From Anaerolineae bacterium (GTDB taxonomy: Bacteria; Chloroflexota; Anaerolineae; B4-G1; DUEL01): a stretch of 64,000 nucleotides of DNA. This document shows, piece by piece, positions 3,725-60,572 of this stretch. Positions within the stretch are counted from its first letter, which is position 1; the number at the start of each line of letters is the position of its first letter. Location of the stretch: NCBI GenBank assembly GCA_016931695.1, contig JAFGEI010000023.1, positions 5,328 to 69,327 on the forward strand, in the 5' to 3' direction. The notes beneath the pieces are model-generated. The model worked only from the letters and a program-made list of their open reading frames with translations. It was not told the DNA's origin and did not search any database. Position numbers and translations under genes: made by a program.

Positions 3725-5972
3725 GCGCATCCTGCCCATCTTATTGCTGGCATTGCTCGCCGTCCTGTTGTTCTGGGACCTGCTCTGGCTGCCGGCGGGC
3801 CAGGCCATCGCCGGCAACGACCTGAGCCACATGTTCCTCCAGTGGTGGCAGTTTGCGCTGCAGTCGGTTCGCCAGGGGGAACTGCCGCTGTGGAACCCCT
3901 ACCTTTTCTCCGGCGCGCCTTTCCTGGCTAATCCCGAGCCGGCCCTTTTGTACCCGCCGGTCTGGTTGGTGCTCCTCCTGGCCCCGAGCCGGGCTGCCGG
4001 ACTGCTCTTTGTCGCGCACCTCTGGCTGGCGGGAGCAGGGATGTTTGCCTGGCTGCAGCACGAAGGGGCGGATCGGACGGGGGCCTTTTTCGGCGCGGTG
4101 GCTTTTGCCTTCAGCGGCTATTTCTTTGCCCGCATCTATGCCGGTCACGCTGGCGTCGTGATGACCCAGGCCTGGCTGCCCTTGATCCTGCTGGCCACCC
4201 GCCGGGCGATCCTGAAACAGAGCGGGGCCTGGGCGATGTGGGGGGGAATTCCGGTCGCCTTATCGCTGCTGGCTGGCAACACGGCCGCATTCTTCTACGT
4301 CGCGCCGATCCAGGCGCTGTATGCCCTGTACTTGATCGGGGGGGAGTGGCGGGAGAAGCGGGGATGGCGCATCCTCCTGCGAGGGGTAGGGCGCCTCGCT
4401 TGCTTGCTGGCGGTTGGGGGAGGGTTGGCGGCGGTGCAACTGCTGCCCACGCTCGAATTCCTGCGCCTCTCCACGCGCCAGGAGGCGACCTATGCCTTTG
4501 CCAGCAGCTATTCCTGGTCGCCCGGCAACCTGCTGACCCTGCTGGTGCCCAACTTTTTCGGCGAACCGGTGCGGACCGGTTATTGGGGGGATGGGCTCTA
4601 CGAAGAGCTGATCTATTACAGCGGCATCCTGCCCCTTTTCCTGGCCCTGGTGCTGGGGTTTCGCCTGCGTCACCGGCGGGCCGCGCTGCTGCTGGTGTTG
4701 GCTGGGGTGGGGCTGTTGCTGGCCCTGGGTCCTTTTACGATCCTGCACCGGCTGGCCTACAACCTGGTTCCTCCCTTCCGCGCCGCCCGTGCGCCGGCGC
4801 GGGCCGGTTTCCTCTTTACTTTTGCCGTCGCGGCGCTGGCCGGGCTGTCGCTAACTGCCCTGCGCCAGCGGTTGGAGGACGTGCGCCCAACCCTGCGCCG
4901 GTGGCTCCGCGGCCCGGTGCCGCGGCTGGTCGTCTTGCTTGCCTTGTTGGTCATCCTGGCCGGTTTCCTGCTTTACATGCTGCAGCGGGACAGCAACCCC
5001 GAGGTGGGCCGGCTGTGGCACGTCGCCAACAGCACGGCGCTCTTTTTGCTCTTTTTCCTGCTGATGATCGGGCTACTGCACGCCTGGCAGGCGGGCCAGC
5101 TCGACGCTCGTTGGGCGCCCGTTCTGGCCATCGCCCTGGTGTTGATCGACCTGTGGAGCTTTGGCCGCCCGCTGCTCCAACCCACGGCGCTGGCGGATAA
5201 CGCCTACTGGCGGGCCGTCGGCGACCTGGCGGCGGAGGAAGAGGGGCGGGTCCTGCCCTGGGGGCTGGGGGTCTTTGAGCAGAACTATGGCATGGCGCTG
5301 GGGTTGGAGAGCGTCTTTGGCTACGACCCGTTGGAGTTGGCGCGCTACCACCGCCTCACCACGTCGGTGCCGGACCCCCGCGCCCGGGCCTATGACCTCT
5401 TGCACGTCCGCTACCTGGCGGCGTGGGGCGAGATGGATTTCCCCGCCGGGGAGGACGCGCCCCGGCTGCTCGGCCAACGGGACGGGGTCTGGGTCTATGA
5501 GCGGCCCACGGCGCTGCCGCGCGCCTGGCTGGTCCACCAGGTCGAGGTGCTCGAGGGGGAAGCGCTGCTGGCCCGCCTGAACGAGCCCGGCTTTGACCCG
5601 CGGTCGGTGGCGCTGCTGGAGCAGGAGCCCGGCTGCCCGCTGGCCGAAGCGGACGAGGCGGAGGGCGTGCTGACCGTCGAGCGGGGGAACAACCGGCTCG
5701 AGCTGGAAGTCGCCGCTGCCGCCCCGGGGCTGCTCGTCTTGAGCGAGCCTTACTACCCCGGCTGGCGGGCAACGGTGGATGGGGAACCGCTCCCGCTGCT
5801 GCAGGTCGACTATGCGCTGCGGGGGGTCTGCGTGCCGGCGGGGGAGCACCGGATTGTGCTGACCTTTTTGCCGCCGTCCCTGCTGATCGGTTTGGCGGTC
5901 AGCCTGCTGGCCCTGCTGCTGGTGGGATGGGCCGGGTGGCGGGTTTGGCGAGATGGGAAAAGGCCGGGCTGA
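3717..5972 (+). CDS. YfhO family membrane protein (GT-C-like glycosyltransferase)
   Basis: 751 aa. The N-terminus (MIRRILPILLLALLAVLLFWDLLWLPAGQAIAGNDLSHMFLQWWQF…LPLWNPYLFSGAPFLANPE) matches the conserved YfhO N-terminal region. Many TM helices. The ATGA overlap with the upstream gene suggests an operon. Confidence 0.8.
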   Translation: MIRRILPILLLALLAVLLFWDLLWLPAGQAIAGNDLSHMFLQWWQFALQSVRQGELPLWNPYLFSGAPFLANPEPALLYPPVWLVLLLAPSRAAGLLFVAHLWLAGAGMFAWLQHEGADRTGAFFGAVAFAFSGYFFARIYAGHAGVVMTQAWLPLILLATRRAILKQSGAWAMWGGIPVALSLLAGNTAAFFYVAPIQALYALYLIGGEWREKRGWRILLRGVGRLACLLAVGGGLAAVQLLPTLEFLRLSTRQEATYAFASSYSWSPGNLLTLLVPNFFGEPVRTGYWGDGLYEELIYYSGILPLFLALVLGFRLRHRRAALLLVLAGVGLLLALGPFTILHRLAYNLVPPFRAARAPARAGFLFTFAVAALAGLSLTALRQRLEDVRPTLRRWLRGPVPRLVVLLALLVILAGFLLYMLQRDSNPEVGRLWHVANSTALFLLFFLLMIGLLHAWQAGQLDARWAPVLAIALVLIDLWSFGRPLLQPTALADNAYWRAVGDLAAEEEGRVLPWGLGVFEQNYGMALGLESVFGYDPLELARYHRLTTSVPDPRARAYDLLHVRYLAAWGEMDFPAGEDAPRLLGQRDGVWVYERPTALPRAWLVHQVEVLEGEALLARLNEPGFDPRSVALLEQEPGCPLAEADEAEGVLTVERGNNRLELEVAAAAPGLLVLSEPYYPGWRATVDGEPLPLLQVDYALRGVCVPAGEHRIVLTFLPPSLLIGLAVSLLALLLVGWAGWRVWRDGKRPG

Positions 5973-31729: not shown

Positions 31730-32263
31730 TCAGGCAATCTCGGGTACGATCAGCCCATAGCCGCCATCCCTGCGGCGGTAGGCCACGTTGATGCCTCCTT
31801 GCTCCCCGTCGAGAAAGACAAAGAACTGGTGACCCAACAGCTCCATCTGCTCGATCGCCTCTTGAGCGGACATGGGCAGCACTTCAAAGCGCTTTACCCG
31901 CACGATTTCCACGGGTGGAAGGGTGTCTTCCGCTGGCATGTTCTCTTCCATTCCCCGCTGCCGGCGGTCCTGCTGCCGGTTCTTGTAACGAGAAATCTGC
32001 CGCCGCATCTTGTCCAGCGTTGCGTCGATTGCGGTGAACATGTCCGCTCCCCGTTCCTCAGCCCGTAGCATCGTGCCGTGAATCCAGATTGTCAACTGGG
32101 CGACTTGACGGTGCGCGTTGGAGCGGGTGTTCTCTACAACCAACTCCATTCGTGCCTCTTCGATGTTGGAGATGTACCGTTCCAACTTTTCGATTTTTTG
32201 TTCGACATATTCTTGCAAGCGTGGGGTAATCTCCAGATTTCGCGCAACCAATTGGACTTGCAT
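31730..32263 (-). CDS. hpf: ribosome hibernation-promoting factor (long form)
   Basis: 177 aa, RBS aggaggtaagg. The MQVQLVARNLEITPRLQEYVEQKIEKLERY… N-terminal RaiA domain plus a C-terminal dimerisation domain. Confidence 0.85.
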   Translation of the reverse strand: MQVQLVARNLEITPRLQEYVEQKIEKLERYISNIEEARMELVVENTRSNAHRQVAQLTIWIHGTMLRAEERGADMFTAIDATLDKMRRQISRYKNRQQDRRQRGMEENMPAEDTLPPVEIVRVKRFEVLPMSAQEAIEQMELLGHQFFVFLDGEQGGINVAYRRRDGGYGLIVPEIA

Positions 32264-32296
32264 ATTCCTTACCTCCTAAAAGAGATTTGATCCCCC

Positions 32297-39118: not shown

Positions 39119-39219
39119 GCACTCTCAATCAATAATAGTGTGTTTCGGGGAAATGTCAAGTAGGACGATCGGCCTATTGCCTGCCCACAAGCCCGCTTGC
39201 AAGTGGTCCGGAGGGATTT

Positions 39220-40325: not shown

Positions 40326-41513
40326 CTACTCCCTCACGCTCAGGTAGGTCACCATTTGCTCCACCCGTCCGCTCTCGGCGGCGCGGAACATGTCCCGATA
40401 AACCGATTCGATCTCGCCGGGCAGGATATCCCGGCCGCCCAGGCCAAAGACATAGTCGGCGATCGGCATCCGCTCGCCGTGGAGGGCCAGGGCGGCCGCA
40501 ATTTCCAAGAAGAGGGGGCCGGCATTGTTCATCGCGCCAAAAGAGATGGCGCGGTCCATCACCGCGACTGCTTTCACGTGGCGCAGCGCGGCGCTCATTT
40601 CCTGTGCCGGGAAGGGGCGAAAGACCCGCGGCTTGAGCAGCCCGACCTTGAGCCCTTCTTCCCGCAGTTGGTCGACCACGACCTTGGCCGTGCCGGCGGC
40701 CGAGTTGGCAACCACGACCGCCACCTCGGCATCGCCCAGCCGATAGCTCTCAAACATGCCATAGTCGCGGTTGAACTGGCGGTTGAACGCCGCTGCCACC
40801 GCCAGGATGACCTCCGGGGCCTTTTCCATCGCCGCGACCTGCTGCCGCTTGTGCTCGTAGTAATAGTCGTAGAAATCGAGCGGGCCGTAGGTCATGGGGT
40901 TTTGCAGGTCGAGCAGCGACCACTGCGGCTGGTAGCTGCCGACGAACGCCTTGACGTCGGCGTCGTCATAGATCTCGACCCGTTCCATGCCGTGGCTGGT
41001 GATAAAGCCGTCCTGGCAGACCGCCACGGGCAGGAGGACATCGGGATGCTCGGCGATGCGCACGGCCTGGATCAGGTTGTCGTATGCTTCCTGCCCGTTC
41101 TCGGAGAAGAGAATGATCCAGCCGGCGTCGCGCATGCCCATCACGTCCGAGTGATCGCAGTGGATGTTGATCGGTCCGGAGAGGGCGCGGTTGACCAGGC
41201 TCATGACGATGGGCAGGCGGCTCGACGCGGCGATGTAGACAATCTCCCACATCAGCGCCAGGCCGTTGGCGGCGGTGGCAGTCATCACCCGCGCCCCGGC
41301 TGCCGACGCGCCGACGCAGGCGCTCATCGCGCTGTGCTCGCTCTCCACGGTCACAAATTCGGTCGTCACCAGTCCGTCCGCTACAAAGTCGGCAAACTTT
41401 TGCACCGTGGAGGTCTGGGGCGTGATCGGATAGGCGGCGACCACGTCCGGGTCGATCTGCCGCATCGCCGTGGCGACCGCCTCGTTGCCTGCTAATGCTT
41501 CAAATGTACTCAT
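40326..41513 (-). CDS. porA: 2-oxoacid (pyruvate):ferredoxin oxidoreductase alpha subunit
   Basis: 395 aa. The N-terminus is MSTFEALAGNEAVATAMRQIDPDVVAAYPITPQT…. Confidence 0.85.
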   Translation of the reverse strand: MSTFEALAGNEAVATAMRQIDPDVVAAYPITPQTSTVQKFADFVADGLVTTEFVTVESEHSAMSACVGASAAGARVMTATAANGLALMWEIVYIAASSRLPIVMSLVNRALSGPINIHCDHSDVMGMRDAGWIILFSENGQEAYDNLIQAVRIAEHPDVLLPVAVCQDGFITSHGMERVEIYDDADVKAFVGSYQPQWSLLDLQNPMTYGPLDFYDYYYEHKRQQVAAMEKAPEVILAVAAAFNRQFNRDYGMFESYRLGDAEVAVVVANSAAGTAKVVVDQLREEGLKVGLLKPRVFRPFPAQEMSAALRHVKAVAVMDRAISFGAMNNAGPLFLEIAAALALHGERMPIADYVFGLGGRDILPGEIESVYRDMFRAAESGRVEQMVTYLSVRE

Positions 41514-41516
41514 TGT

Positions 41517-41870
41517 TTACTCCTCGGCCTGGCCTTCCTCGATGATACGGATACAGAGGCGCGGGTCGTCTCGGTCGAGCTCTTGCTCGGCTTTGCGCCT
41601 GACCTGGGCGTTGACCGGGCAGACCGCCGCACAGATACCACATCCTTTGCAGTGCTCCAGGTTAAAGCCGAGCATCTTTTCGTTCTCGGCATCGACCAGG
41701 ATGCACGAATCGGGGCAGAAGAGCCAACATTGGAAACAGTGGGTGCAAGCGGCCTCGCCGCGGACGGGGCGAAAGGCGCGCCAGCCGCCGGTGAGGTACT
41801 CGACCGCGTTTCCTGCCTCCAGAATCATCCCGCCGATGGGGATTTCCTTCCATCCTTTGAGCTGTGCCAT
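41517..41870 (-). CDS. porD: 2-oxoacid:ferredoxin oxidoreductase delta subunit (2x[4Fe-4S] ferredoxin)
   Basis: Start at ATG 41870 after ggagggataaca (MAQLKGWKEIPIGG…). Two CxxCxxCxxxCP motifs. The track's 184-codon upstream extension is rejected. Confidence 0.8.
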   Translation of the reverse strand: MAQLKGWKEIPIGGMILEAGNAVEYLTGGWRAFRPVRGEAACTHCFQCWLFCPDSCILVDAENEKMLGFNLEHCKGCGICAAVCPVNAQVRRKAEQELDRDDPRLCIRIIEEGQAEE

Positions 41871-41872
41871 TG

Positions 41873-42445
41873 TTATCCCTCCACGACCTCTTCCGCCGCC
41901 CGCCGCAAAGAGCGGACGTTGGCGTCCAGTATGCCTGGAGAGACCTTTTTGCCAAACCAGGCGCGAATCTGCTCCGTCAACTCGTCGATCTCGAAAAGGC
42001 CGGTTGCGCGGGCAAAGGCGCCCAGCATGGGCGTGTTGGTGATCTCCCGGCCGATCTCTTCGATGGCGATGTGGCTGGCGTTTACCGTAAATACCTTGCC
42101 GGTGCGGAAGCCGGTGATCTCGCGCACTTCTTGGGGTAACATCGAGGTGTTGACGAGCAGTATGCCCGCCTCCTTGAGCCCTTCTGTCACCGGAACGGAG
42201 CCCAGCAGGGTAGGGTCGAGCACCAGCACCACGTCCGGCTCCTCGATCTGGGCGTGGATGGTGATCGGTTTGCGGCTGAGGCGGGTAAAGGAGCGAATGG
42301 GGGCGCCCATCCGCTCTGGCCCATAATCGGGAAAGGCCTGGAAGTACTGCCCGGTACCGAGGGCAGTTTCGGCCAGCAGCTTGCCTGCCGTGACCACTCC
42401 TTGCCCCCCGCGGCCATGCCAACGAATTTCTACTACGTCTTTCAT
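41873..42445 (-). CDS. porG: 2-oxoacid:ferredoxin oxidoreductase gamma subunit
   Basis: Start at ATG 42445 after aagggaagtgagt (MKDVVEIRWHGRGGQGVVTAGKLLAE…). Confidence 0.8.
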   Translation of the reverse strand: MKDVVEIRWHGRGGQGVVTAGKLLAETALGTGQYFQAFPDYGPERMGAPIRSFTRLSRKPITIHAQIEEPDVVLVLDPTLLGSVPVTEGLKEAGILLVNTSMLPQEVREITGFRTGKVFTVNASHIAIEEIGREITNTPMLGAFARATGLFEIDELTEQIRAWFGKKVSPGILDANVRSLRRAAEEVVEG

Positions 42446-42600
42446 ACTCACTTCCCTTTCAATAGATTGATCGCAACGACTCGGGGTACACTGCGTCCTA
42501 TTGTGCCACAAGTCAACAATTTGCGCCAGTGACGGGTTGCCCGCCAAAGGGCGATACTTGTCACAGGTTGAGATTTGTCAGTCGACCAGGATTTTGCACT

Positions 42601-44139
42601 TTACCACCGCCCGTAATAGCAAGTTTGGTAATCTGCGCCAATGATCAGCCGGAAGCCATAGGCGCTGCCCCAGTCGGGCGCGTATATCACCCGCTCGTCT
42701 GGGATGTTGAACATTGACTGCAAATAGTCCACCCCGGTTCCCTTGGCGTACTCGCTAAAGACGATGAGCATGGTCTGGTAGTAATCCCGCCGATCGGGCT
42801 CGTTCACCGCGGCCGGAAATCCTGCCCGCAGCAGCCGGTCCGCTGCCAGGTGGTCCCAATCCGGGTTGTGGGTCCCGTTCCACACGTCGACGGTGGTAAA
42901 GACGCGCGCCATGCGCGCTTCGGGGATGGGGGCCATCGCCTCGGCGACGACGGGCTCGATGGCCTCCCAGTTGGGCAAAAAGACAGACCCGCCCTGGGGG
43001 GTCGTCCACGGCGTCACCGCATCCCGGCCGATGTTGTAAAAGCGGATGTTTTGGTCCTGCAGCAGGAAAGCGACCTGGGTAATCGCGATTACGTCGTCGA
43101 GCCCCATGTCCGTCACCACCATGTCCTGCATCTGCGTCCACAGCGTGGGGATCTGGGGGATCATCCCCAGGTCTTGGCCGCGGTACCACATCGCCTGCAG
43201 CACCTGCTGCTGGCGCCGCTCGCGGGAAAAGGTGCTGCTGGTCAGCCGTGAGCGGGCGTACCAGAGCGCCTGTTCCCCGTCCAGGTGGTGGATACCCGGC
43301 TCCAGGGTAAAGATGGGATACTCGCCGTTTTCGTCGGCGTAGGGCCAATGGTCGCTGAGGGTGCAGTGGACGGGGATGTCGACGCCGCCCAGGGTGTCGA
43401 CGATGCCGATCAGGCCGTCAAAGTCGGTGCGGACGACGTGGTCGATTTCGATGCCCAGGTTGTAGAGGATGGTGTCGCGCAGCAGGCCGGTGCCGCCGCC
43501 AGGATAGCCGTAGGCTTCGCCGTAAAAGTCGGCAAAGTTGATGCGGCTCATCCAAAAGCCGGGAATGTAGAGGTAGAGGTCGCGGGGGATGGAGAGGACG
43601 GTGACCGTGCCGTGATCGACCTGGATGGAGACGATGTGGACGGCGTCGGTGTGCCACTCGGTCCACTCGGGCCGGCGGTCGCTGCCGGTGACGACGATGT
43701 TGATCGTGTCGTCGGTCAGTGAAACGGCGGGGACGGCGGTGGGGATGGGCAACACCGGCTCCGGGGTCGGGCGGCTGGGGATAAAGGTGGGGAACGGCGG
43801 CGGGAGGGTTGGCACCGGCGGGAGGGGGGTGTTGGTTGGCGTGGGGGGCGACGTCGGGGTGGGGGTGTGCGTATGGGTTGGCGTGGGCGAGGGGGGCAGC
43901 GTCGCCGTGGCGGTGGGGGTCAAAGTCGGGGACGGGGAGGCGATCGGCGTCGGGGAGAGGGTTGGTATGGGGGGGGATGTGGGAGAGGCGGCGCCCACCG
44001 CCACTGGCGGGGTAGGAGAGACCAGGCTGGAGGAGGCAAAGGTGAGGCCCAGGGCGCCCAGTCCCAGTAGCCACAGCAAGAAAAATCCTCCAACGGCAAA
44101 TACTTGCAGAACCGCCCATTGGCGCTTGCTCATTCCCAT
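42601..44139 (-). CDS. LCP family (LytR-CpsA-Psr) cell-envelope polymer transferase with Pro/Thr-rich linker
   Basis: N-terminal TM helix, an 80-aa PT linker, and the LCP core (…IVVTGSDRR…, …SIPRDLYLYIPG…, …VDTLGGVDI…). Confidence 0.8.
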   Translation of the reverse strand: MGMSKRQWAVLQVFAVGGFFLLWLLGLGALGLTFASSSLVSPTPPVAVGAASPTSPPIPTLSPTPIASPSPTLTPTATATLPPSPTPTHTHTPTPTSPPTPTNTPLPPVPTLPPPFPTFIPSRPTPEPVLPIPTAVPAVSLTDDTINIVVTGSDRRPEWTEWHTDAVHIVSIQVDHGTVTVLSIPRDLYLYIPGFWMSRINFADFYGEAYGYPGGGTGLLRDTILYNLGIEIDHVVRTDFDGLIGIVDTLGGVDIPVHCTLSDHWPYADENGEYPIFTLEPGIHHLDGEQALWYARSRLTSSTFSRERRQQQVLQAMWYRGQDLGMIPQIPTLWTQMQDMVVTDMGLDDVIAITQVAFLLQDQNIRFYNIGRDAVTPWTTPQGGSVFLPNWEAIEPVVAEAMAPIPEARMARVFTTVDVWNGTHNPDWDHLAADRLLRAGFPAAVNEPDRRDYYQTMLIVFSEYAKGTGVDYLQSMFNIPDERVIYAPDWGSAYGFRLIIGADYQTCYYGRW

Positions 44140-51574: not shown

Positions 51575-51784
51575 CTCAGTAGATCCAAAATCTGGCCGCA
51601 GAGACACATCTGGTTGTCGAAATTGCATAGATGTCATTCTGAGCAGCCTGCCCCGGGCATAGCCGAGGGGAGCGTAGCGAGCGAAGAATCCCGTTCCGGA
51701 GAAGCGAAATCTCGTTCTGCAAGGAACGAGACCCTTTGCTCCGCCCTCTGGGCGTCACTCAGGGTGACAAATTGGATCTACTGA
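51575..51784. other. 210-bp structured intergenic element bounded by perfect 12-bp inverted repeats (ctcagtagatcc / ggatctactgag)
   Basis: Lies between the Lon-like gene and the YfhO paralog. Internal hairpins include ctcgttc-tgcaag-gaacgag, gtcactcagggtgac and acatct/agatgt. No protein-coding potential. Confidence 0.4.
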
Positions 51785-51820
51785 GTCTGCATGCAGCGAG
51801 GCCGCCGCGTGAGAGAGTGG

Positions 51821-54034
51821 ATGGTTCCCCTGGCGCTGCTGTTGCTGGCAGCCCTGTTTTTCTGGCCGTTGTGGATTCACCCCGACAGCTTTTTCTACCC
51901 CCCCGATGGCCGCTACACCGACCTGGCCGTCACCCACTGGCCGAACGCTCTCTTTATCCGCTATTCCCTGCAATCCTGGGGCCAGGTTCCGCTCTGGCGC
52001 CCGTTGATCATGTCCGGCGCCCCTTTCGCCGCGAATCCCCTGGCGGGCCTCTGGTATTCTCCCAACTGGCTGCTCTTGCTGCTGCCGCTCACCCCTGCCT
52101 TTTCCTTGCTTTTTGTCTTGCACACTGCCTGGGCGGGATGGGGGGGGTACCGGCTGGTGCGGTCGCTGGGGGGCACGCGCAGCGGCGGGCTGGTCGCAGC
52201 CTTCACGCTGATGTTTGCCGCCAAGGCGCTGGCCCACCTCGCCCTGGGCCACGTCGGCTTGCACGCCGCGTGGGCCTGGCTGCCCTGGCTGCTGTGGGCA
52301 GTGCGCCGCCTGGCGACGCGCCGTCGCCCCGGCGACGTGGCGCTGGCGGGAGCGGCTGCGGCAATGACGATCCTGGCCGACGTGCGGCTCGGCGCTTACG
52401 GCGGGGTGGCAGCGGCCGGTTATTGGTTGGGGACGGTGTGCTCCCAAGGCGCCGCCCGGTCAAAGGCCCGCCCCTACGCAGTGGGGCTGGGCGCTGGCCT
52501 GTTGGCTGCCGCGCTGGCGGCGGTGCAGATCCTGCCGCTGGCGGCGGTATCGAGCCGGCTCAGCCGCGGCGCGATCGGCCCGGAAGCGAGCGTGGCGCTT
52601 TCCCTGCCCCCCGCTCGTCTCCTCGGCCTGCTGATCGCCGACCACGGCGGGGCGCACGAATGGCAGACGTACCTGGGAGCGGCCGGGCTGCTGCTGGCGC
52701 TGGTGGGGTTGTTCTGCTGGCCGCGGCGGCAGCGCTGGTGGTGGGGCGGGCTGGCGTTGGGCGCAGGGCTCTACTCCCTGGGCGCTCATACGGTTTTCTA
52801 TCCCGCGCTCCTGCGCTGGCTGCCCCCGTTGGGCTGGCTGCGCGGGCCGGCGCGGGCCTGGTTCCTGGTCGTGCTGGCCGCGGCGGTGCTGGCTGGGCAG
52901 GGAGTGAGCGCGGTGGAGCGGGGTGCGCTGCGCATCGGCCGCCGCGGCGGCGACCGGCTCGCTGTGGCCCTCGCCGGCGTCGCGGTGGCGGGGGGAGTGG
53001 GCGGGCTGTTCCTGCGCCTGCCGCTCAACGTCACGGCGGCAGCCCTGACCTGGGCCGCGGCGGGGCTGCTGCTCGCGCTGGCGGCAAGCCGGCGCCTGCC
53101 GCCCCGCTTTTTTGCCGTCCTGGCCTGCGCTCTTTGCCTCGGCGACCTGTGGGGTGTGGGCGCCACCCTTTACCGCGTGCGCCCGGCCGGCGAGGTGCTG
53201 GCGGAGGGGGGCGCGGCGGCAGCGTGGCTGGCCGAGCAGCCGCCCCCCTTCCGCGTCTACTCGCCCAGCTATAGCATCCCGCAGCAAACCGGGGCGCTCT
53301 ACGAGCTGGAAATGGCGGACGGGGTCGACCCGTTCCAGCTGGCCGATTACGTCGCTTTCATGCGCGTCGCCAGCGGGGTCGATCTGCCCGGCTACCACGT
53401 GACGATTCCCCCCTTCCCAGAGGTTGATCCAGGCGAGGAGCTGCTGCTGGCGCACCGCGACGCCGTTCCCGACCCGCGCCTGCTGGGGCTGCTCAACGTC
53501 CGCTACCTGGCCGCTGCCTACCCGGTCGACGCGGCCGGCTGGACGCCGCTCGGGGAGTGGGACGGCGTCTACCTTTACCGGAACGAGTACGTCCTCCCCC
53601 GCGCTTTCGTGGTCGAACAAGTGGCGACGGTAAGTGGGCTGGAAGCGGCGCTGGCCTGGATGGCGCAGAACGATCTCTCGCAGGCCGCGGTGGTGGATGG
53701 CGGCCGCCCGTTCGACGGAGCGGGGGAGAGCCGGGCGGTCGACTGGGTCGATCGGCGCCCCCAGCGCATCGAACTGACCGCCGAGGGACCGGGGTTGTTG
53801 GTCCTGAGCGAGGTGTACGACCCCGACTGGCGGGTAACGGTCGACGGCCGGGCAGCAGAGATGGTGCGCGCCGACGGCATCCTGCGCGGCGTCTACCTGG
53901 AGCCCGGGCGGCAGCAGGTCGTTTTCTCTTACCGCCCTGCCGGGCTGGCGGCGGGGTTGCTGGTCACAGGGCTGGGCGTCCTGTGCGCCGCCGCCTGGGC
54001 GATCCGCTGTAAAAGCCCTAAAAAAAGGGGTTGA
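51821..54034 (+). CDS. YfhO family membrane protein (second paralog)
   Basis: Start at ATG 51821 after gagagagtgg (MVPLALLLLAALFFWPLWIHPDSFF…). An alternative ATG lies at 51791. Same conserved N-terminal region as 3717..5972 (…VPLWRPLIMSGAPFAANPLAGLWYSPNW…). Confidence 0.75.
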   Translation: MVPLALLLLAALFFWPLWIHPDSFFYPPDGRYTDLAVTHWPNALFIRYSLQSWGQVPLWRPLIMSGAPFAANPLAGLWYSPNWLLLLLPLTPAFSLLFVLHTAWAGWGGYRLVRSLGGTRSGGLVAAFTLMFAAKALAHLALGHVGLHAAWAWLPWLLWAVRRLATRRRPGDVALAGAAAAMTILADVRLGAYGGVAAAGYWLGTVCSQGAARSKARPYAVGLGAGLLAAALAAVQILPLAAVSSRLSRGAIGPEASVALSLPPARLLGLLIADHGGAHEWQTYLGAAGLLLALVGLFCWPRRQRWWWGGLALGAGLYSLGAHTVFYPALLRWLPPLGWLRGPARAWFLVVLAAAVLAGQGVSAVERGALRIGRRGGDRLAVALAGVAVAGGVGGLFLRLPLNVTAAALTWAAAGLLLALAASRRLPPRFFAVLACALCLGDLWGVGATLYRVRPAGEVLAEGGAAAAWLAEQPPPFRVYSPSYSIPQQTGALYELEMADGVDPFQLADYVAFMRVASGVDLPGYHVTIPPFPEVDPGEELLLAHRDAVPDPRLLGLLNVRYLAAAYPVDAAGWTPLGEWDGVYLYRNEYVLPRAFVVEQVATVSGLEAALAWMAQNDLSQAAVVDGGRPFDGAGESRAVDWVDRRPQRIELTAEGPGLLVLSEVYDPDWRVTVDGRAAEMVRADGILRGVYLEPGRQQVVFSYRPAGLAAGLLVTGLGVLCAAAWAIRCKSPKKRG

Positions 54035-54059
54035 CTTCTATATAATGATTTGATATAAT
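54031..54059 (+). promoter_or_regulatory. consensus sigma70-type promoter: TTGACT - 17 bp - TATAAT
   Basis: Exact -35 and -10 hexamers with the optimal 17-nt spacer, about 40 nt upstream of the Excalibur-protein ATG. The -35 overlaps the YfhO stop codon. Confidence 0.6.
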
Positions 54060-54101
54060 TTCTTTGTATTATACTTCTCTCATAGAGGAAGAGAAGAGAA
54101 A

Positions 54102-55355
54102 ATGAAATGTCCAATTTGTGATGACGCAGAACTTGAGCAGATAAAAGGTAAAGAAAAGCTAGAGCGATTGTTCATCCGCCCTGACATAGTTTTTTGCCCT
54201 AACTGCAAAGCAAGAGCAGAGTTGTTGGGTGTAAAGCTCCGCTTTACACATATCCCTGCTCCGTATGCCTTTCCTATTGGTACTGCTCTGAATGATGCTG
54301 TAACACCGCAACAAGCCGGTCTCATAGGCGCTCAAGCTCGTCGTTGGCTTAGAATTCGTTCAACGCTAGAAGCAGGAAAACCTATAGCTACCGATAGCCC
54401 ATCAGCGATTAGGAAAAACGAAAACTGTTACTTGCATTTCCCCAATTCTATATTGAGTCAAGAATGCACGCGCCAGGGTAGCCTATACCTTGCAGAGACT
54501 GACCGGGGCAATCTATATCTTACTGACAGCCATATCTACATTGTTGGGCAAACAACCACCCGCATTCCCCTTGCCAAGATTGTCAAGATAACAATTTCAA
54601 GGGATCGCTCCCAGTTTCGCATTAGTCGAGCTGATAGGAAAACAGCGCAATACATTACCGTTTCTTCCACGCTTGACCACCATCTTCTGCAGCTTGCGCT
54701 TAGCCGTTTGACCGATGCTATAGTGCCACCACAAGTGGATATGGTTAATAATTTCCCTGCTTCATCATACAGGCTTAATCTACGGGCAATAGGACCGATA
54801 TGGCAAAAGGGAGGGCTTGGTCGTCTAGGCCTTGTTCTGCTTGCTATTGTTTTACTTTCTCCGTTTTTGTGTTGCCTTGGCAGCAGCGTCCTTGGACCAG
54901 CATTTGCTCCAGAACCCAGTCACACTCCTACTTTTACTATTTCGCCCCATCTAAAGAATACTATGACGTCAACTCCGCCAGCTACTGCTAGCCCTACAAG
55001 AACACCGACCCTGACTAACACCCCAACAAGAACAAGCACACCAACCCGGACCATTACCCCTGGCCCTTCTCCAACTTCAACAAACACCCCGACTCTGACC
55101 CCAACGTGGACACCACGCCCAACTTACACACCGAGGCCAACACCAACCGCCAGGACAACAGCGACTTCCCCACCGCCTCCAACTTCCCCGCCGCCTCCTG
55201 TTTATGATTGCTCAGGAGATATTTACAACTGTAGTGATTTTAGTACACAACGGGAGGCGCAAGCCTGTTTTGATTATTGTGTATCACAGGGGAAGGGCGA
55301 CATTCATCAGCTTGATGCTGACAATAATGGGCTGGCCTGCGAGTCATTGCCATAG
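54102..55355 (+). CDS. membrane-anchored protein: N-terminal zinc ribbon, bacterial-PH-like domain, TM helix, Pro/Thr-rich linker, C-terminal Excalibur (extracellular calcium-binding) domain
   Basis: RBS agaggaagagaagagaaa-ATG. CPICDD…CPNC zinc ribbon. TM helix [24 protein letters not shown] linker. C-terminal [42 protein letters not shown] matches the Excalibur DxDxDGxxCE pattern. Confidence 0.75.
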
Positions 55356-55365
55356 TCCAGTTGTA

Positions 55366-55386
55366 GGTCACGCTTCAAGCGTGACC
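55366..55386 (+). terminator. hairpin immediately after the Excalibur-protein stop (ggtcacgc-ttcaa-gcgtgacc)
   Basis: 8-bp perfect stem 11 nt after the TAG. No U-tract. Confidence 0.4.
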
Positions 55387-55536
55387 TGCTGCTAAGAATT
55401 ATCAGTACGAAAAGCTCGTGGCGGATTCCCGCCTTTGCGGGACAAGTTACCAAATCCGCATGTTCTGCTGGATCTGGCAGCCTGTCCCGCATCGGGAATC
55501 CAGTGGGAGCTTTTCGTGATCTACTGATTATAAGTG

Positions 55537-57921
55537 TTAGCGTGCGGTCTCGACCCGACGAGATCGCCCGTCGCTGCTGACCTCCACCGTGCCGTCCTGG
55601 TCGGTGCGGTAGACGGGGATGCTCCCCAGCCGCTCCAGCATCTCCCAGTGGGGGTGGTGAAAGAGGTTGCCCGCGCCCACCGGGATCACCACCGCGTCCG
55701 GCGTCACCGCCGCCAGGAAGGGGGCGGTGGTGGCCGCGCCGTCGCCGTGGTGGGCGGCCTTGAGGACCGTGCAGTCGAGCCAGGCCCCGCCCGCCACCAG
55801 CGCCGCTTCCACATCCTCCCCGGCGTCCCCCGCCAGCAGGAAGCAGACCGCGCCGTGGTCGAGCCGCAGCACCAGCGAGTTGTCGTTGTTGCGACTGGAG
55901 AAGGGAGCAGGGCCGGGATGGAGCACCGTCAGCAGCACGCCCTCGTCGAGCCACAACTGCAGGCCCGCCTCGCCGCGGTAGACCTCTGCCGTGGAGCTGC
56001 CGACCAACTCCCGCCAGCGGTCGCAGAGGGGCGTGTAGCAGTCCGCTTCGCGCTCGACAATCGCTGCGACCTGGTACCGCTCCAGCACCGGCAGCAGGCC
56101 CGCCAGGACGTCGTCGTCGGGGTGGGTGAGAACCACCAGGTCGAGGGAGTGGTCCCAGAAAGGCATGCGGCGGCCCAGGTGGCTCAGCAGCAGTGAAGGG
56201 CTGGGGCCGCCGTCGATCAACACCTGGCGACCCGAGGGGGTCTGGACGAAAATGGCGTCCCCCTGCCCGACGTCGAGGAACGCGACATGGAGCTCGCCGT
56301 CGGGCAGGGTGCGCCAGGCGATAGCGGCGAGCAGCAGCAGCACGCCGGACAGGCCCAGCACGAGCCGGTCGCTGAGGCGCGCGGTGAGCGCGAGCCAGAG
56401 AACGCACGCCCGGCCGCGCAGCATCGCCCGGCGCTCGGCGGGCTGGTAGCCCCACCAGGTGACGGCTGCCAGCAGCCCGTAGGCGGCCCAGGCCATCCAC
56501 GGTTCCACCCGTCCCAGGTCGACCCAGGCGTACGGGACACGGGCGGTGAGGCGGACGACCTCGATCGTATAGGCCAGCGCCAGCCAGGCAGCCCAGCCGA
56601 GCGCCTTGCCCAGCGGCAGCCAGACGAGGCCGGCGATGGTGGCGAGCCCGCCGCCGACCATGACCGCCGGCTGGACGGGGAGGATCAGGAAATTGGTCAG
56701 CAGGGTGACCAGGGAGAGACGGCGGAAATAGGCCACGAGCAGCGGCGTGGTGGAAATCTGCGCCGCCAGGGTCACCAGCAACGCCTCCGAGAACCACCCG
56801 ACGGCCCGTTCGGCCCGCTCTGGGCTGGTGAGACGGGACAGCAGCGCGACGGCTCCCCGCTCCAGCGGCCCGGTATAGAGCACCAGGCCGACGGTGGCGG
56901 CAAAGCTGAGCTGAAATCCGACGTCCCACAAGGTGAAGGGGTTGATTGCCGTCATCAGCACCGCCGCGGCGGCGAGGGAGGTGGGGGCGAAGGACTCGCG
57001 CCCCAGGTGCTTGCCCAGCAGGTAGATCACCCCCATCATCGCCGCGCGGACCACGGCGGCGGAGGCGCCGACGAACAGGGTGTAGAGAACGACCCCGCCG
57101 ATGGCGACCCACACGGCGCGCTTCCCGCCCACCATCCGCCGGGCGAGGCCGGCAAAGATGCCCGAGATGATGGTGATGTTGAACCCCGAGATGGCGATGA
57201 TGTGCGTCGTGCCGGTGGCCGAGAAAGCGTCTGCCAGGTCGGCGGGGATGCCGCTCTCAATGCCCAGCAGGATGCCCGTCAGCAGCGACGCTTCCGGTTC
57301 GTGCAGGATGGCGGCGATCGTCGCCTGGGCGCGTCCCTTCAGCGCCAACAACGCGGCGGTGAAGGGGCTCCCCTCGCCGCTCCCCAGCCGGGTCGCCCGG
57401 CAGCGGGGCACGATGGAATGGATGCCCTGCCGCGCCAAATAGTCGCGGTAGGAAAAGTCGTCGTCCGTGGGGGGGGTCTCCAGCGGCCCCCGCACCCGCA
57501 GCCGGTCGCCGTAGGCAAAGGTTGGGTAGCGGTCCACCTGCACCAGCGCCAGCCCGTCGACCGTGACCTCTCGCCCGTCGGCCAGCCGCAGCTGCTCGGC
57601 GCGCAGGCGCAGGTAGATCTTTTCTTCGCGCACGTCCGGCTCCCGCACCACGACGCCTTCCAGGGTGACGGGGCCGAGGTCGTTGTAGCGCGCCAGCGCG
57701 TGCGCGTCGAGACGGGGCTGGGCCAGTCGCCGCCGTCCCGCCCCCAGCGCCAGCATCACCAGGCAGGCGCAGAGGAGGTTGCAGCGGCGCCCTCCTCTCC
57801 AGCCGATCAAGCCGACCAGGCCGAGGAGCGCGAGCAAAGGGAGTACTTGCCAGGGGAGAGAGAGGGCGTGGTCCAGCGCAATGCCGGCCAGCCAGGCGGA
57901 AGCCAGATAGATCAGTGTCAT
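55537..57921 (-). CDS. comEC: DNA internalisation competence protein ComEC/Rec2 (competence domain plus C-terminal metallo-beta-lactamase domain)
   Basis: Start at ATG 57921 after gaggtg (MTLIYLASAWLAGIAL…). …HIIAISGFNITII… competence domain. MBL motif …VLTHPDDDVLAGL… / …AAHHGD…. Confidence 0.8.
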   Translation of the reverse strand: MTLIYLASAWLAGIALDHALSLPWQVLPLLALLGLVGLIGWRGGRRCNLLCACLVMLALGAGRRRLAQPRLDAHALARYNDLGPVTLEGVVVREPDVREEKIYLRLRAEQLRLADGREVTVDGLALVQVDRYPTFAYGDRLRVRGPLETPPTDDDFSYRDYLARQGIHSIVPRCRATRLGSGEGSPFTAALLALKGRAQATIAAILHEPEASLLTGILLGIESGIPADLADAFSATGTTHIIAISGFNITIISGIFAGLARRMVGGKRAVWVAIGGVVLYTLFVGASAAVVRAAMMGVIYLLGKHLGRESFAPTSLAAAAVLMTAINPFTLWDVGFQLSFAATVGLVLYTGPLERGAVALLSRLTSPERAERAVGWFSEALLVTLAAQISTTPLLVAYFRRLSLVTLLTNFLILPVQPAVMVGGGLATIAGLVWLPLGKALGWAAWLALAYTIEVVRLTARVPYAWVDLGRVEPWMAWAAYGLLAAVTWWGYQPAERRAMLRGRACVLWLALTARLSDRLVLGLSGVLLLLAAIAWRTLPDGELHVAFLDVGQGDAIFVQTPSGRQVLIDGGPSPSLLLSHLGRRMPFWDHSLDLVVLTHPDDDVLAGLLPVLERYQVAAIVEREADCYTPLCDRWRELVGSSTAEVYRGEAGLQLWLDEGVLLTVLHPGPAPFSSRNNDNSLVLRLDHGAVCFLLAGDAGEDVEAALVAGGAWLDCTVLKAAHHGDGAATTAPFLAAVTPDAVVIPVGAGNLFHHPHWEMLERLGSIPVYRTDQDGTVEVSSDGRSRRVETAR

Positions 57922-58060: not shown

Positions 58061-58888
58061 GTGCCAGAAAAGAGGTTCCACCCACAAGTATACGAACTGC
58101 GGCCCTGGTATCACGACTTTGCCCGCCTGGGCTTGCAGACGGTCTTTGACGAGCCGCCGCACATCGGCGCGCGGGCCGTCGACCTGCTGCGGCGGCTGGC
58201 CGCGGCCGCCCGCCGCGCCGCCGGCGTCCACGCGGTGGAAAAGGGCGAGCGGTTCTCGATGCGCACGCTCCTGGCCGGCGCCCCGCCCTCTCACCGCGTC
58301 AACCAGCGGGACAAGGAACAGGTCGTCATCCCGCTCATCCAGCAGGCGCTGCAGGGTTTGGAAGGCGCTCCTTCCTGTCTCGACCTCTTTTGCGCCGACG
58401 GTTACTACAGTTGCACGATCGCTCACCTTTGCCCCGCCGCCGCCATCACCGGCGTCGACCTCGACCCGGCCGAGATCCGGCGCGCCGAAACCGCCGCCCG
58501 CCTGCTGGGCGTGGCAAAAGCCCGCTTTGTCGTCGCCGACGTGGTCGATTTCGTCCGCCAGGCTGCCCCCCATGACCTGATCCTCTGTACCGGCGGCCTC
58601 TATCACCTGCAGGAGCCGCGCCATTTATTGCAACGGCTCTATCCCATCTCGACCCACTTCCTGGTTGTTCAGAGCGTCGTCACCCTGGAAAGCGAGTCGC
58701 CCGACTATTTCGTCTCCCCAGCGCCGGGCTGGAAACACGGCAGCCGCTTTACCCACGCCGCTCTGCGCCGCTGGCTGGAAGAGATCGGCTGGGAAATCGT
58801 GGCCGCGGCGCGCAACGAGCTGAGCGGCAATTCCCGCCCCTGCGACCGCGGCTCGAGCTACTTTCTTTGCCACAAGGGAGCGCCGTGA
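58061..58888 (+). CDS. class I SAM-dependent methyltransferase
   Basis: GTG start. …LDLFCADGYYSCTIA… (motif I-like), …DLILCTGGLYHLQEP…. Confidence 0.65.
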   Translation: MPEKRFHPQVYELRPWYHDFARLGLQTVFDEPPHIGARAVDLLRRLAAAARRAAGVHAVEKGERFSMRTLLAGAPPSHRVNQRDKEQVVIPLIQQALQGLEGAPSCLDLFCADGYYSCTIAHLCPAAAITGVDLDPAEIRRAETAARLLGVAKARFVVADVVDFVRQAAPHDLILCTGGLYHLQEPRHLLQRLYPISTHFLVVQSVVTLESESPDYFVSPAPGWKHGSRFTHAALRRWLEEIGWEIVAAARNELSGNSRPCDRGSSYFLCHKGAP

Positions 58889-59685
58889 ACCTGCGCCAGT
58901 ACCGCCTGCTGCGCCCCCTCGACGCCCTCTGCCGGCGGATCAACGGCCAGGCCGACCGGCCGCCCATCGACCTGCGCCGCTACGTCGGGCCGCTGCCCGG
59001 CTTTGAGCGCACCGGCGGCGAGTTCCTGGCCTATCTCAAGCTGCTCGCCGGCTTGCGGGCCGACAGCCGCGTGCTGGATATCGGCTGCGGCTGCGGCCTG
59101 ATGGCCCTGCCGCTGACGGACTGCCTGGGAGCGCGGGGCCGCTACGTGGGGATGGACATCAGCCGCGCGGCGATCGACTGGTGCCAGAAAGAGATCGCGG
59201 CCCGTCATCCCCACTTTAGCTTTATCCACAGCGACATCTACAACCCGCGCTACAACCCCGCCGGTCGGCAGCGGGCCGACGCCTACGTTTTTCCACTGGA
59301 GGACGGGGCGTTTGACCTGATCCTGCTCAAGTCGGTCTTGACCCACATGCGCCCGCCCGAGACCGCGCACTACCTGGCAGAGATTGCGCGCCTGCTGGGC
59401 GACGGCGGCTGCTGCCTGGCGACCTTTTTCCTGCTCAACCAGGCCCAGCGGCGCCTGGCGGACGAAGGGCGCTGTGCCTTTGATTTTCGCTTTGGCGACG
59501 AGACCTGGCGCACCATCGACGCCGACAACCCCGAGGTCGCTGTCGCCTACGACGAGCCGCGCCTGCTGGCGATGATCGAGGCGGCGGGATTGGCGCTGCG
59601 GGACACGGCTCATTACGGCGCCTGGAGCGGGCGCGACGACGGGTTGTCGTTCCAGGATATTTTGCTGTTGGAGCGAGCGTCGTGA
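58885..59685 (+). CDS. class I SAM-dependent methyltransferase (Methyltransf_11/25-like)
   Basis: GTG at 58885 after gggag, overlapping the upstream stop (GTGA). A TTG alternative lies at 58867. …VLDIGCGCGLMALPL…, …FDLILLKSVLTHM…. Confidence 0.65.
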   Translation: MNLRQYRLLRPLDALCRRINGQADRPPIDLRRYVGPLPGFERTGGEFLAYLKLLAGLRADSRVLDIGCGCGLMALPLTDCLGARGRYVGMDISRAAIDWCQKEIAARHPHFSFIHSDIYNPRYNPAGRQRADAYVFPLEDGAFDLILLKSVLTHMRPPETAHYLAEIARLLGDGGCCLATFFLLNQAQRRLADEGRCAFDFRFGDETWRTIDADNPEVAVAYDEPRLLAMIEAAGLALRDTAHYGAWSGRDDGLSFQDILLLERAS

Positions 59686-60572
59686 ACCTGGGCGTGGTCA
59701 TCCTCAACTGGAACGCCGCGGATGACACCATCGCCTGCCTCGACGCGGTTGCCGCCTGGCGCCGCCTCTCCCCCCAGGTGTGGGTGGTCGACAACGCCTC
59801 GCAGGGTGACGACGCCGGGCGGATCGCCCGGGCCCATCCCCAGGTAAAGCTGATCCGCAGCGACCGCAACCGCGGCTTTGCCGGCGGCAACAACCTGGCC
59901 CTGGCAGAGGCGCTGGCTGCCGGCTGCGCGGCGGTGCTGCTGCTGAACAATGACGCCGCCATCGAGGAGGAGAGTGTCGCCGTGCTGATGGAGGCGCTGC
60001 AGGCCCATCCCGAGGTGGGCATCGTCGGCCCGCCGCTGTGGGACAGCGAGCGGCCTGCGGTGCTGCTCTCGGCGGGCGGCGTCGACATCGCCCTCCACGC
60101 CGCCTCCCACCTGCTCGACCTGCCGGACGGCGAGCCCCTGCGCCGCGTCGACCACGTGCCCGGCACCTGCGTGCTGATCCGCGCCGGGGTGCTGCAGGCC
60201 GCCGGCCTGCTGGACGAGGCCTATTTCTTTGGCGGAGAACTGGCTGACCTCTGCGCCCGCGCCCGGCAGCACGGTTTCGAGAGCGCCGTCGACGGGCGGG
60301 CGCGGGCGGTGCACCGCCTGAGCCGCTCGTCGGAGCTGCGCCACACCTTGCACGTCTATTACGTCCTGCGCAACCGCTTCCTGTTCATTCGCAAGTTCCA
60401 CGCCCGGCAGCGGCTGCGGCTCTTTTTCTTGTGGGCCGCCCAGGGGCTGCGGCTGGCGCTGCAAGCGGCGCTCCGGCGGCAGCCCCGCCGCGCCCGCGCC
60501 GCCCTGCTGGGCGTGGCGGACGGCCTGCGCGGCCGCTTTGGCGGGCAGAACGAGCGGATTTTGGCCCGATGA
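59682..60572 (+). CDS. GT2 family glycosyltransferase
   Basis: GTG start overlapping the previous stop (GTGA). VVILNWNAADDTIACL…VVDNASQGD…, DRNRGFAGGNN (the DxD / GT-A motif set). Confidence 0.75.
   Translation: MNLGVVILNWNAADDTIACLDAVAAWRRLSPQVWVVDNASQGDDAGRIARAHPQVKLIRSDRNRGFAGGNNLALAEALAAGCAAVLLLNNDAAIEEESVAVLMEALQAHPEVGIVGPPLWDSERPAVLLSAGGVDIALHAASHLLDLPDGEPLRRVDHVPGTCVLIRAGVLQAAGLLDEAYFFGGELADLCARARQHGFESAVDGRARAVHRLSRSSELRHTLHVYYVLRNRFLFIRKFHARQRLRLFFLWAAQGLRLALQAALRRQPRRARAALLGVADGLRGRFGGQNERILAR

Follow-up and report, generated by a model that had tools for sequence, protein, structure and literature searches.

Excalibur domains are defined by the motif DxDxDGxxCE, and in CbpL such a domain is paired with an Ltp superinfection-exclusion domain (PMC5137146). 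Excalibur proteins are also known as gene cassettes of Vibrio (PMC2761259). Here we describe a gene for an Excalibur-type protein in a 64,000-nucleotide stretch of contig JAFGEI010000023.1 (hereafter the window), which belongs to an Anaerolineae/Thermoflexia metagenome-assembled genome (MAG) whose YfhO protein is identical to MBN1953788.1. The gene lies between yfhO and comEC, in a segment (54011–55536) that is best explained, and in our judgment probably correctly so, as a small, horizontally acquired islet of moron-like layout that encodes a membrane-anchored Excalibur-domain protein.

Horizontal acquisition of the islet is well supported. A preliminary description of this DNA had placed a low-GC islet of 1.5 kb directly after the yfhO stop codon, and had proposed that GC and codon usage be compared along the window; both comparisons bore it out. 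In 300-nucleotide windows, the GC fraction drops from 0.69–0.80 in yfhO to 0.40 at 54000–54299, stays at 0.46–0.56 up to approximately 55500 and then returns to 0.69–0.73 in comEC. All other 500-nucleotide bins of the 64 kb have a GC fraction of at least 0.578, and the islet is the sole such dip. The islet coding sequence has a GC fraction of 0.484, versus 0.655 ± 0.034 in 97 equal-sized windows elsewhere (z = −5.0), and its GC fraction at third codon positions (GC3) is 0.391, versus 0.815 ± 0.057 in 36 other long open reading frames (ORFs), the flanking yfhO and comEC genes having values of 0.87 and 0.89. As an internal control for codon usage in the Pro/Thr-rich (PT) linker of the islet protein, we used the host ORF at 42601–44139 (−), which encodes a linker of similar kind: G/C-ending codons for Pro, Thr and Ser make up 34% of those in the islet linker versus 84% of those in the host linker. 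Because the deviation exists at the codon level, amino-acid content is not the cause of the islet's composition. Clade-wide conservation of the low-GC segment, which would speak against acquisition, was not seen; no low-GC segment follows comEC at the corresponding loci of 15 related Anaerolineae/Thermoflexia genomes (0/15).

The islet occupies the gap between convergent yfhO and comEC, which are both complete. The last codons of yfhO (TGT AAA AGC CCT AAA AAA AGG GGT, then TGA) are already low in GC (0.375 at 54011–54034 versus 0.72 in the remainder of the gene), which places the left junction near 54011 and suggests that the insert probably contributed the short basic tail of YfhO and its stop codon. 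YfhO homologues have C-terminal tails that vary but are basic and of similar length. On the other side, ComEC ends (...VETAR*) at the same point as its relatives (...VETER*, ...IETER*), so that the islet cannot reach past 55536. The parts of the islet and its limits are as follows.

54011–54034, + strand: left edge of the islet, comprising the last 8 yfhO codons (CKSPKKRG) and TGA, in low-GC codons.
54031–54059, + strand: sigma-70-type promoter-like site, with TTGACT (54031–54036), a 17-nucleotide spacer and TATAAT (54054–54059).
54085–54089, + strand: Shine-Dalgarno-like GAGGA, read from the sequence in a purine-rich leader, 12 nucleotides ahead of the ATG.
54102–55355, + strand: islet gene, the sole ORF of the islet, for a predicted single-pass membrane protein of 417 residues with its N terminus inside and its C terminus outside (N-in/C-out).
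55363–55389, no strand assigned: perfect 12-bp hairpin, 8 nucleotides past the stop codon, without a U-tract.
55401–55527, no strand assigned: near-perfect palindrome of 127 nucleotides with nested stems, an A4 tract on one flank and T4 on the other.
55537–55539, − strand: TAA stop codon of comEC, bounding the islet on the right.

Several other features of the window's composition were noted. Its second-lowest GC spot is at 32172–32291 (0.40 over 120 nucleotides), the apparent 5′ end of a minus-strand gene, with the ribosome-binding site AGGAGGTAAGGAATATG and a start codon on that strand. An ORF at 41517–42422 (−) with a GC3 of 0.575 was considered as a second foreign gene and rejected as a wrong-frame ORF across two others (40326–41513 and 41873–42547, both −), which by eye, without a domain scan, resemble subunits of pyruvate/2-oxoacid:ferredoxin oxidoreductase. 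The host ORF at 42601–44139 (−) begins with a hydrophobic segment and contains a Pro/Thr linker of approximately 100 residues written in CCC, CCG, ACC and ACG codons, and this codon choice accounts for a plus-strand GC skew of +0.43 at 43700–44000.

The expression signals of the islet fit a self-contained unit. The preliminary description reported a TTGACT-17-TATAAT promoter, which is indeed present and is the only exact match to this pattern in the window; it had also called the site perfect, and this was an overstatement, as 11 of the 12 consensus positions are matched. The −10 element is extended (TGn, with TG at 54051–54052), and the yfhO stop codon (TGA, 54032–54034) falls within the −35 hexamer. 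On both strands of the window, three sites match at least 11 of 12 positions, the other two being TTGACA-16-TATTAT at 39159 (−) and TTAACA-17-TATAAT at 17153 (−). When the local AT-rich 90 nucleotides were shuffled, a site of at least 11/12 arose in 77 of 20,000 cases (0.4%). The start codon of the gene is secure, because in the alignments M1 is invariant and all homologues begin with M-x-C-P-I-C. In the subfamily of one homologue, P0005, a conserved promoter-like sequence (TTGC[T/G]A-16/17-TATTAT) stands approximately 66 nucleotides upstream of the start (5780–5915 of locus L003, and upstream of the family gene in L033, L034, L035 and L036 as well) together with a shared GGAG Shine-Dalgarno sequence; the islet site is at −71. 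This suggests that members of the family may generally be self-contained transcription units. The islet leader has no other copy in the window, in the loci fetched for the homologues or in viral contigs.

The nested hairpins that had been described at the right edge are present (55363–55527), although their assignment to the islet is less certain, since with a GC fraction of 0.51–0.54 they are possibly part of a native spacer. The 3′ segment that holds both hairpins folds at −97 to −99 kcal/mol on either strand (z about −10 to −12). A consensus scan of 55356–55536 called no terminator-like site, the only tracts being the A4/T4 at the base of the long hairpin, and an Rfam scan of 53900–55700 at E ≤ 1 found no match. 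No copy of the palindrome was found elsewhere in the window, in the fetched loci or in viral contigs. The palindrome is a probable candidate for a terminator that works in both directions, or for an insulator, where the islet gene and comEC converge.

The domain order proposed in the preliminary description holds for the zinc ribbon, a pleckstrin homology (PH) fold, the transmembrane (TM) helix and the PT linker; its bPH domain has no Pfam match, and its Excalibur domain scores below the Pfam cutoff. The protein is divided as follows, all parts being encoded on the + strand.

54102–54254: zinc ribbon, residues 1–51, with Cys3, Cys6, Cys32 and Cys35.
54414–54716: PH-like domain, residues ~105–205, a seven-strand sandwich capped by helix 190–203 in the AlphaFold (AF2) model.
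54810–54890: transmembrane helix, residues ~237–263, from a reading of the sequence and AF2 helix 240–259.
54900–55199: Pro/Thr-rich stalk, residues 267–366, with degenerate 30-nucleotide repeats (family D1) and an AF2 predicted local distance difference test score (pLDDT) below 50.
55200–55352: Excalibur-type domain, residues 367–417, predicted to bind calcium, with a sub-threshold match to PF05901.

The N-terminal module matched no Pfam family, and its assignment comes from residue conservation and from an AlphaFold run on a five-sequence alignment. All four Cys of the two CxxC knuckles (C3-x2-C6 and C32-x2-C35) are invariant in alignment A1, and in alignment A2 two are invariant and two at least 90% conserved; the model builds this region as β-strands and hairpins with Cys pairs (pLDDT 78–91), and Pfam Zn_ribbon gives weak matches only, in family members. 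Residues 1–210 are modeled confidently (pLDDT 80–93), with a long helix (69–90) ahead of strands 109–186 and then helix 190–203; a loop of the PH module, R176-x-D-R-K, is conserved. The leading Foldseek matches in the PDB, among them every one of the 37 with E ≤ 1e-3, belong to the PH superfold (GRK2, Dbs, Lam6 GRAM, Dcp1, MTMR, RanBD and EVH1; E 1e-4 to 1e-3). Pfam models of bPH, PH and GRAM domains matched none of 11 family members at E ≤ 1, and a MoaF_C match on the PH region (E 0.04–0.09) was dismissed as noise. The zinc ribbon and the PH-like fold are thus supported by the model, and the name bPH applies at the level of fold only, not of Pfam family. K231 and R236 precede the TM helix and E267 follows it; by the positive-inside rule, and because no signal peptide is present, we infer the N-in/C-out topology. 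Of the matches given by Pfam alone, the MoaF_C noise aside, that to the Excalibur domain is the only one, and it is sub-threshold. Both the Cys of the helix region (QACFDYC) and that of the loop are present. The domain is 66–78% identical to those of proteins that carry PF05901, mostly extracellular nucleases with SNase, DUF1524, EEP or MBL domains, and three members of the islet protein's own family reach PF05901 at E ≤ 1.7e-5.

The PH-like unit was also found outside the zinc-ribbon/TM architecture: nine stretches of P0220 (2228 residues) match residues ~109–167 of the islet protein, and P0221 (399 residues), a DUF4236 and HD-CE-like protein, ends in the same domain. A single predicted viral structure in BFVD, A0A6M3BEE0 (296 residues), resembles the model (E 3.9e-7 over 176 columns) and, on this structural likeness, may be a phage-borne relative of the zinc-ribbon/PH module. 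Phage and plasmid collections contained no match to the islet protein, nor the plasmids any to the islet DNA, and viral-contig matches to the family alignment were set aside as low complexity of the PT linker.

In an exhaustive HMMER comparison of residues 1–265 with 1.84 billion cluster representatives, only 13 proteins matched, and for 11 of these E was ≤ 1e-10. Throughout this family the cytoplasmic module, TM helix and PT stalk are conserved and the outer head is exchanged: SNase and LTD domains in P0002 and P0005, an NBR1-like Ig domain with Excalibur in P0001, P0212 and P0214, SH3_3 in P0211 and an Ada-like zinc domain in P0003. The islet protein has the shortest head, with an alignment gap where the Ig domain sits between two PT stretches, an arrangement consistent with a possible origin of this copy in which the two PT-coding repeats recombined and the Ig domain was lost. 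The family genes have GC fractions of 0.49–0.57 and GC3 values of 0.40–0.59, in contigs of 0.53–0.58. The gene for P0002 (locus L002) is in an integrative element with an excisionase, two primases and a serine integrase, a copy of P0003 (L032) is placed after a DDE transposase, and the L036 copy stands in a lower-GC patch of approximately 3.5 kb with genes for an LTD protein and a PLD nuclease with LTD. In L003 the family gene is found beside a type IV methyl-directed restriction endonuclease-like gene and PLD and SNase nucleases. The acquisition proposed in the preliminary description, which may also have been recent as suggested there, is therefore upheld by composition, the codon control, intact flanks, the lack of a low-GC segment in the relatives' loci and the presence of relatives in mobile or lower-GC DNA.

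Two further observations concern the settings of these homologues. In L003 (90–4748) and L036 (11889–16695), SNase+LTD members occur amid PLD+LTD genes (with weak DrmC-like PLD matches), together with an SNase and NBR1-Ig protein with an Excalibur-like C terminus, a type IV restriction endonuclease-like gene and RlaP; these gene groups could be either clusters for degradation of extracellular DNA or clusters of a defense type. In addition, two sequences occur together in JGI sample 3300061472 (L029, L030): P0001, which at 49% identity is the nearest relative of the islet protein, and P0092, a YfhO homologue with 64% identity. Related hosts and potential donors are therefore found in one metagenome.

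We propose that the islet came from a source of lower GC (~50%), most likely a different bacterium of the Chloroflexota or an integrative element of such a bacterium, and that it entered the GC-rich (~66–70%) Anaerolineae chromosome by horizontal transfer in this direction, where it would have invaded or replaced a short spacer between yfhO and comEC. Because the islet shows no sign of an integrase, a tRNA, terminal inverted repeats or a target duplication, entry is attributed to illegitimate recombination or to the decay of a larger element. The resulting layout would resemble that of a moron, in which a near-consensus sigma-70-type promoter drives one ORF and the stem-loops halt antisense transcription into comEC. 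The product is predicted to be a type-II-like single-pass membrane protein with the zinc ribbon and PH fold in the cytoplasm and, outside the cell, a Pro/Thr stalk of ~100 residues that would end in a small Ca2+-binding Excalibur domain. Since the cytoplasmic module is conserved while the extracellular head is exchanged, this module may serve as a membrane anchor or organizer that displays heads directed to DNA, Ca2+ or the wall, the islet copy being a minimal form whose head consists of Excalibur alone and lacks a nuclease. The function that we favor is a Ca2+-dependent surface role or an accessory role related to extracellular DNA, tethered by the zinc-ribbon/PH organizer; the adjacency of the islet to comEC is most likely incidental.

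A number of observations weigh against this interpretation. The hallmarks of mobility are missing: terminal inverted repeats and a target duplication were sought at the islet edges and not found, the 64-kb window contains no tRNA, and no mobility gene marks the islet, the ORFs of the surrounding region (from 48 to 60 kb of the window) being Lon-like, YfhO, ComEC and three read by eye only, without a domain scan, as methyltransferase- and glycosyltransferase-like (two at 58061–59685 and one at 59682–60572). The best YfhO and ComEC relatives are 63–69% identical to the host proteins and do not have the yfhO-comEC arrangement, so that these genomes are too distant, and not syntenic, to offer a view of the empty site. 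The right junction is present in the window's own assembly alone. The hairpins are devoid of U-tracts, and the 181 nucleotides past the stop codon (GC 0.51) and the palindrome (0.54) are near native intergenic DNA (0.53–0.59), such that the hairpins may be native spacer rather than imported DNA. In the protein, the Excalibur match scores 19.7 bits (E 1.1e-3), below the gathering cutoff of 22, and the loop reads DxDxNGxxCE, with Asn in place of the third Asp. EF hands tolerate Asn as a ligand at this position. Finally, the nearest homologue is only 49–56% identical to the islet protein.

Other explanations bear on whether the islet is functional and on what it does. It is unlikely, in our estimation, that the islet is a non-functional passenger, i.e. 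a decaying fragment that has lost its Ig or nuclease head, has not been purged and carries a promoter-like site as a by-product of AT-richness. Such decay would be consistent with the short head, whose gap falls exactly at the NBR1-Ig position of P0001, P0212 and P0214 with flanking PT repeats that could recombine, and AT-rich DNA does yield promoter-like hexamers more readily. However, the 417-codon ORF is intact in stop-rich DNA and keeps all family-invariant residues, the Excalibur motif and the Cys residues, the rarity of 11/12 sites among local shuffles (0.4%) argues against a chance promoter, and a promoter-like site stands at a similar distance in the P0005 subfamily. Distinctly unlikely is a second possibility, that the islet is a remnant or cargo of a defense or exclusion element, its family being a surface nuclease or DNA-entry exclusion system, such that the copy by comEC, although it has no nuclease head, would influence the uptake of DNA or the entry of phage DNA. 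Among PADLOC families, the candidate C3a212 matches the SNase+LTD heads of P0002 (E 5e-58) and P0005 (E 4e-46), the neighborhood of the family gene in L003 and the integrative element of L002 are of the expected kind, nucleases are the usual fusion partners of such Excalibur domains, and CbpL provides a precedent for their combination with a superinfection-exclusion domain. Against this, C3a212 is a candidate family only, the islet protein lacks a nuclease domain as well as any specific PADLOC match (its sole match, at E 1.6e-3, is due to low complexity of the PT linker), no defense genes adjoin the islet in the window, and its adjacency to comEC is conserved in none of the relatives. A broader and more speculative idea, to which we give little credence at present, is that the zinc-ribbon, PH, TM and PT-stalk architecture represents an undescribed family carried by mobile elements, with interchangeable heads that would act on incoming or extracellular DNA (in exclusion, defense or the processing of extracellular DNA), the PH/zinc module positioning or regulating them and the nuclease-less islet copy modulating DNA uptake by its host.

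How the DNA came to stand at this position admits two further explanations. Because the source is a MAG (that of MBN1953788.1), DNA of an organism of ~50% GC from the same sample might have been mis-joined into the contig, a possibility that would be helped by the lack of independent confirmation of the right junction, as the matching Logan contig breaks in the palindrome. We consider such a chimera very improbable. The Logan contig (SRR13394437) equals 51759–55435 of the window with 0 mismatches, and thus confirms the left junction in a second, independent assembly made with another assembler; its end inside a 127-nucleotide palindrome is the expected behavior of a de Bruijn assembler; and each join coincides exactly with the end of a complete gene, which speaks against a chimera, as two random mis-joins would not do so. 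There is hardly any likelihood that the islet is instead an integron-type gene cassette at a secondary site, with the palindrome as its attC. The islet has one gene and, after it, a long imperfect palindrome whose length is in the range of attC sites (57–141 nucleotides), the right edge reads G|TTA, and the Vibrio cassettes cited above include Excalibur proteins; yet a regular-expression scan of both strands of 55341–55560 found no GTTRRRY or RYYYAAC core sites, the absence of which led us to reject the attC reading, the left edge has no TTRRRY start, the palindrome has no second copy in any of the sequences compared, and an own promoter with a 90-nucleotide leader sets the islet apart from most cassettes.

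As a probable moron-like acquisition, the islet offers a clean, well-bounded example of foreign DNA that has not been ameliorated, from the Anaerolineae of the little-studied phylum Chloroflexota. A unit of promoter, gene and hairpins between two intact genes, without recognizable mobility machinery, is useful for studying the route of entry, and it also bears on how GC-rich hosts handle AT-rich genes. The family of the zinc-ribbon/PH module is uncharacterized and very rare; its members travel with mobile or variable DNA and swap heads that in several cases are nucleases, which leads to a concrete hypothesis. The islet does not overturn current understanding; it represents a real but fairly ordinary event, and its gene is one of many accessory "hypothetical" genes.

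With respect to known systems, the islet resembles an integron cassette with its attC in consisting of a single gene and a long imperfect palindrome, and differs from it in having its own promoter and no core sites, with no integrase or array seen. The SNase+LTD extracellular nucleases (C3a212 and the thermonuclease family) are linked to the islet protein through P0002 and P0005, paralogues that share the N-terminal anchor and PT stalk, whereas the islet protein has neither an SNase nor an LTD domain. Its seven-strand sandwich, with the C-terminal helix near the membrane, is like that of bPH and GRAM PH-fold domains in the AF2 model and in Foldseek, although no Pfam sequence match exists in the 11 members and the islet domain has a zinc ribbon and a long helix fused ahead of it. 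Like the Excalibur surface proteins (PF05901; CbpL of S. pneumoniae and YokF of B. subtilis), the islet protein has C-terminal ~45 residues with a Cys pair and a loop close to the DxDxDGxxCE type, predicted to be carried outside the cell on the tip of a low-complexity linker. It departs from them in the Asn of its loop and its sub-threshold score, in the absence of a nuclease or other catalytic partner, and in an anchor made of an N-terminal TM helix and cytoplasmic zinc-ribbon/PH module rather than a signal peptide, lipobox or choline-binding repeats. Unlike phage morons, the islet is in a chromosome between housekeeping genes and not in a prophage, its hairpins have no U-tract and it bears no mobility signature; what it shares with morons and small genomic islets is a predicted sigma-70-type promoter of its own ahead of one ORF, a stem-loop after it, a sharply deviant composition and a place between two unrelated genes, neither of which is disrupted.

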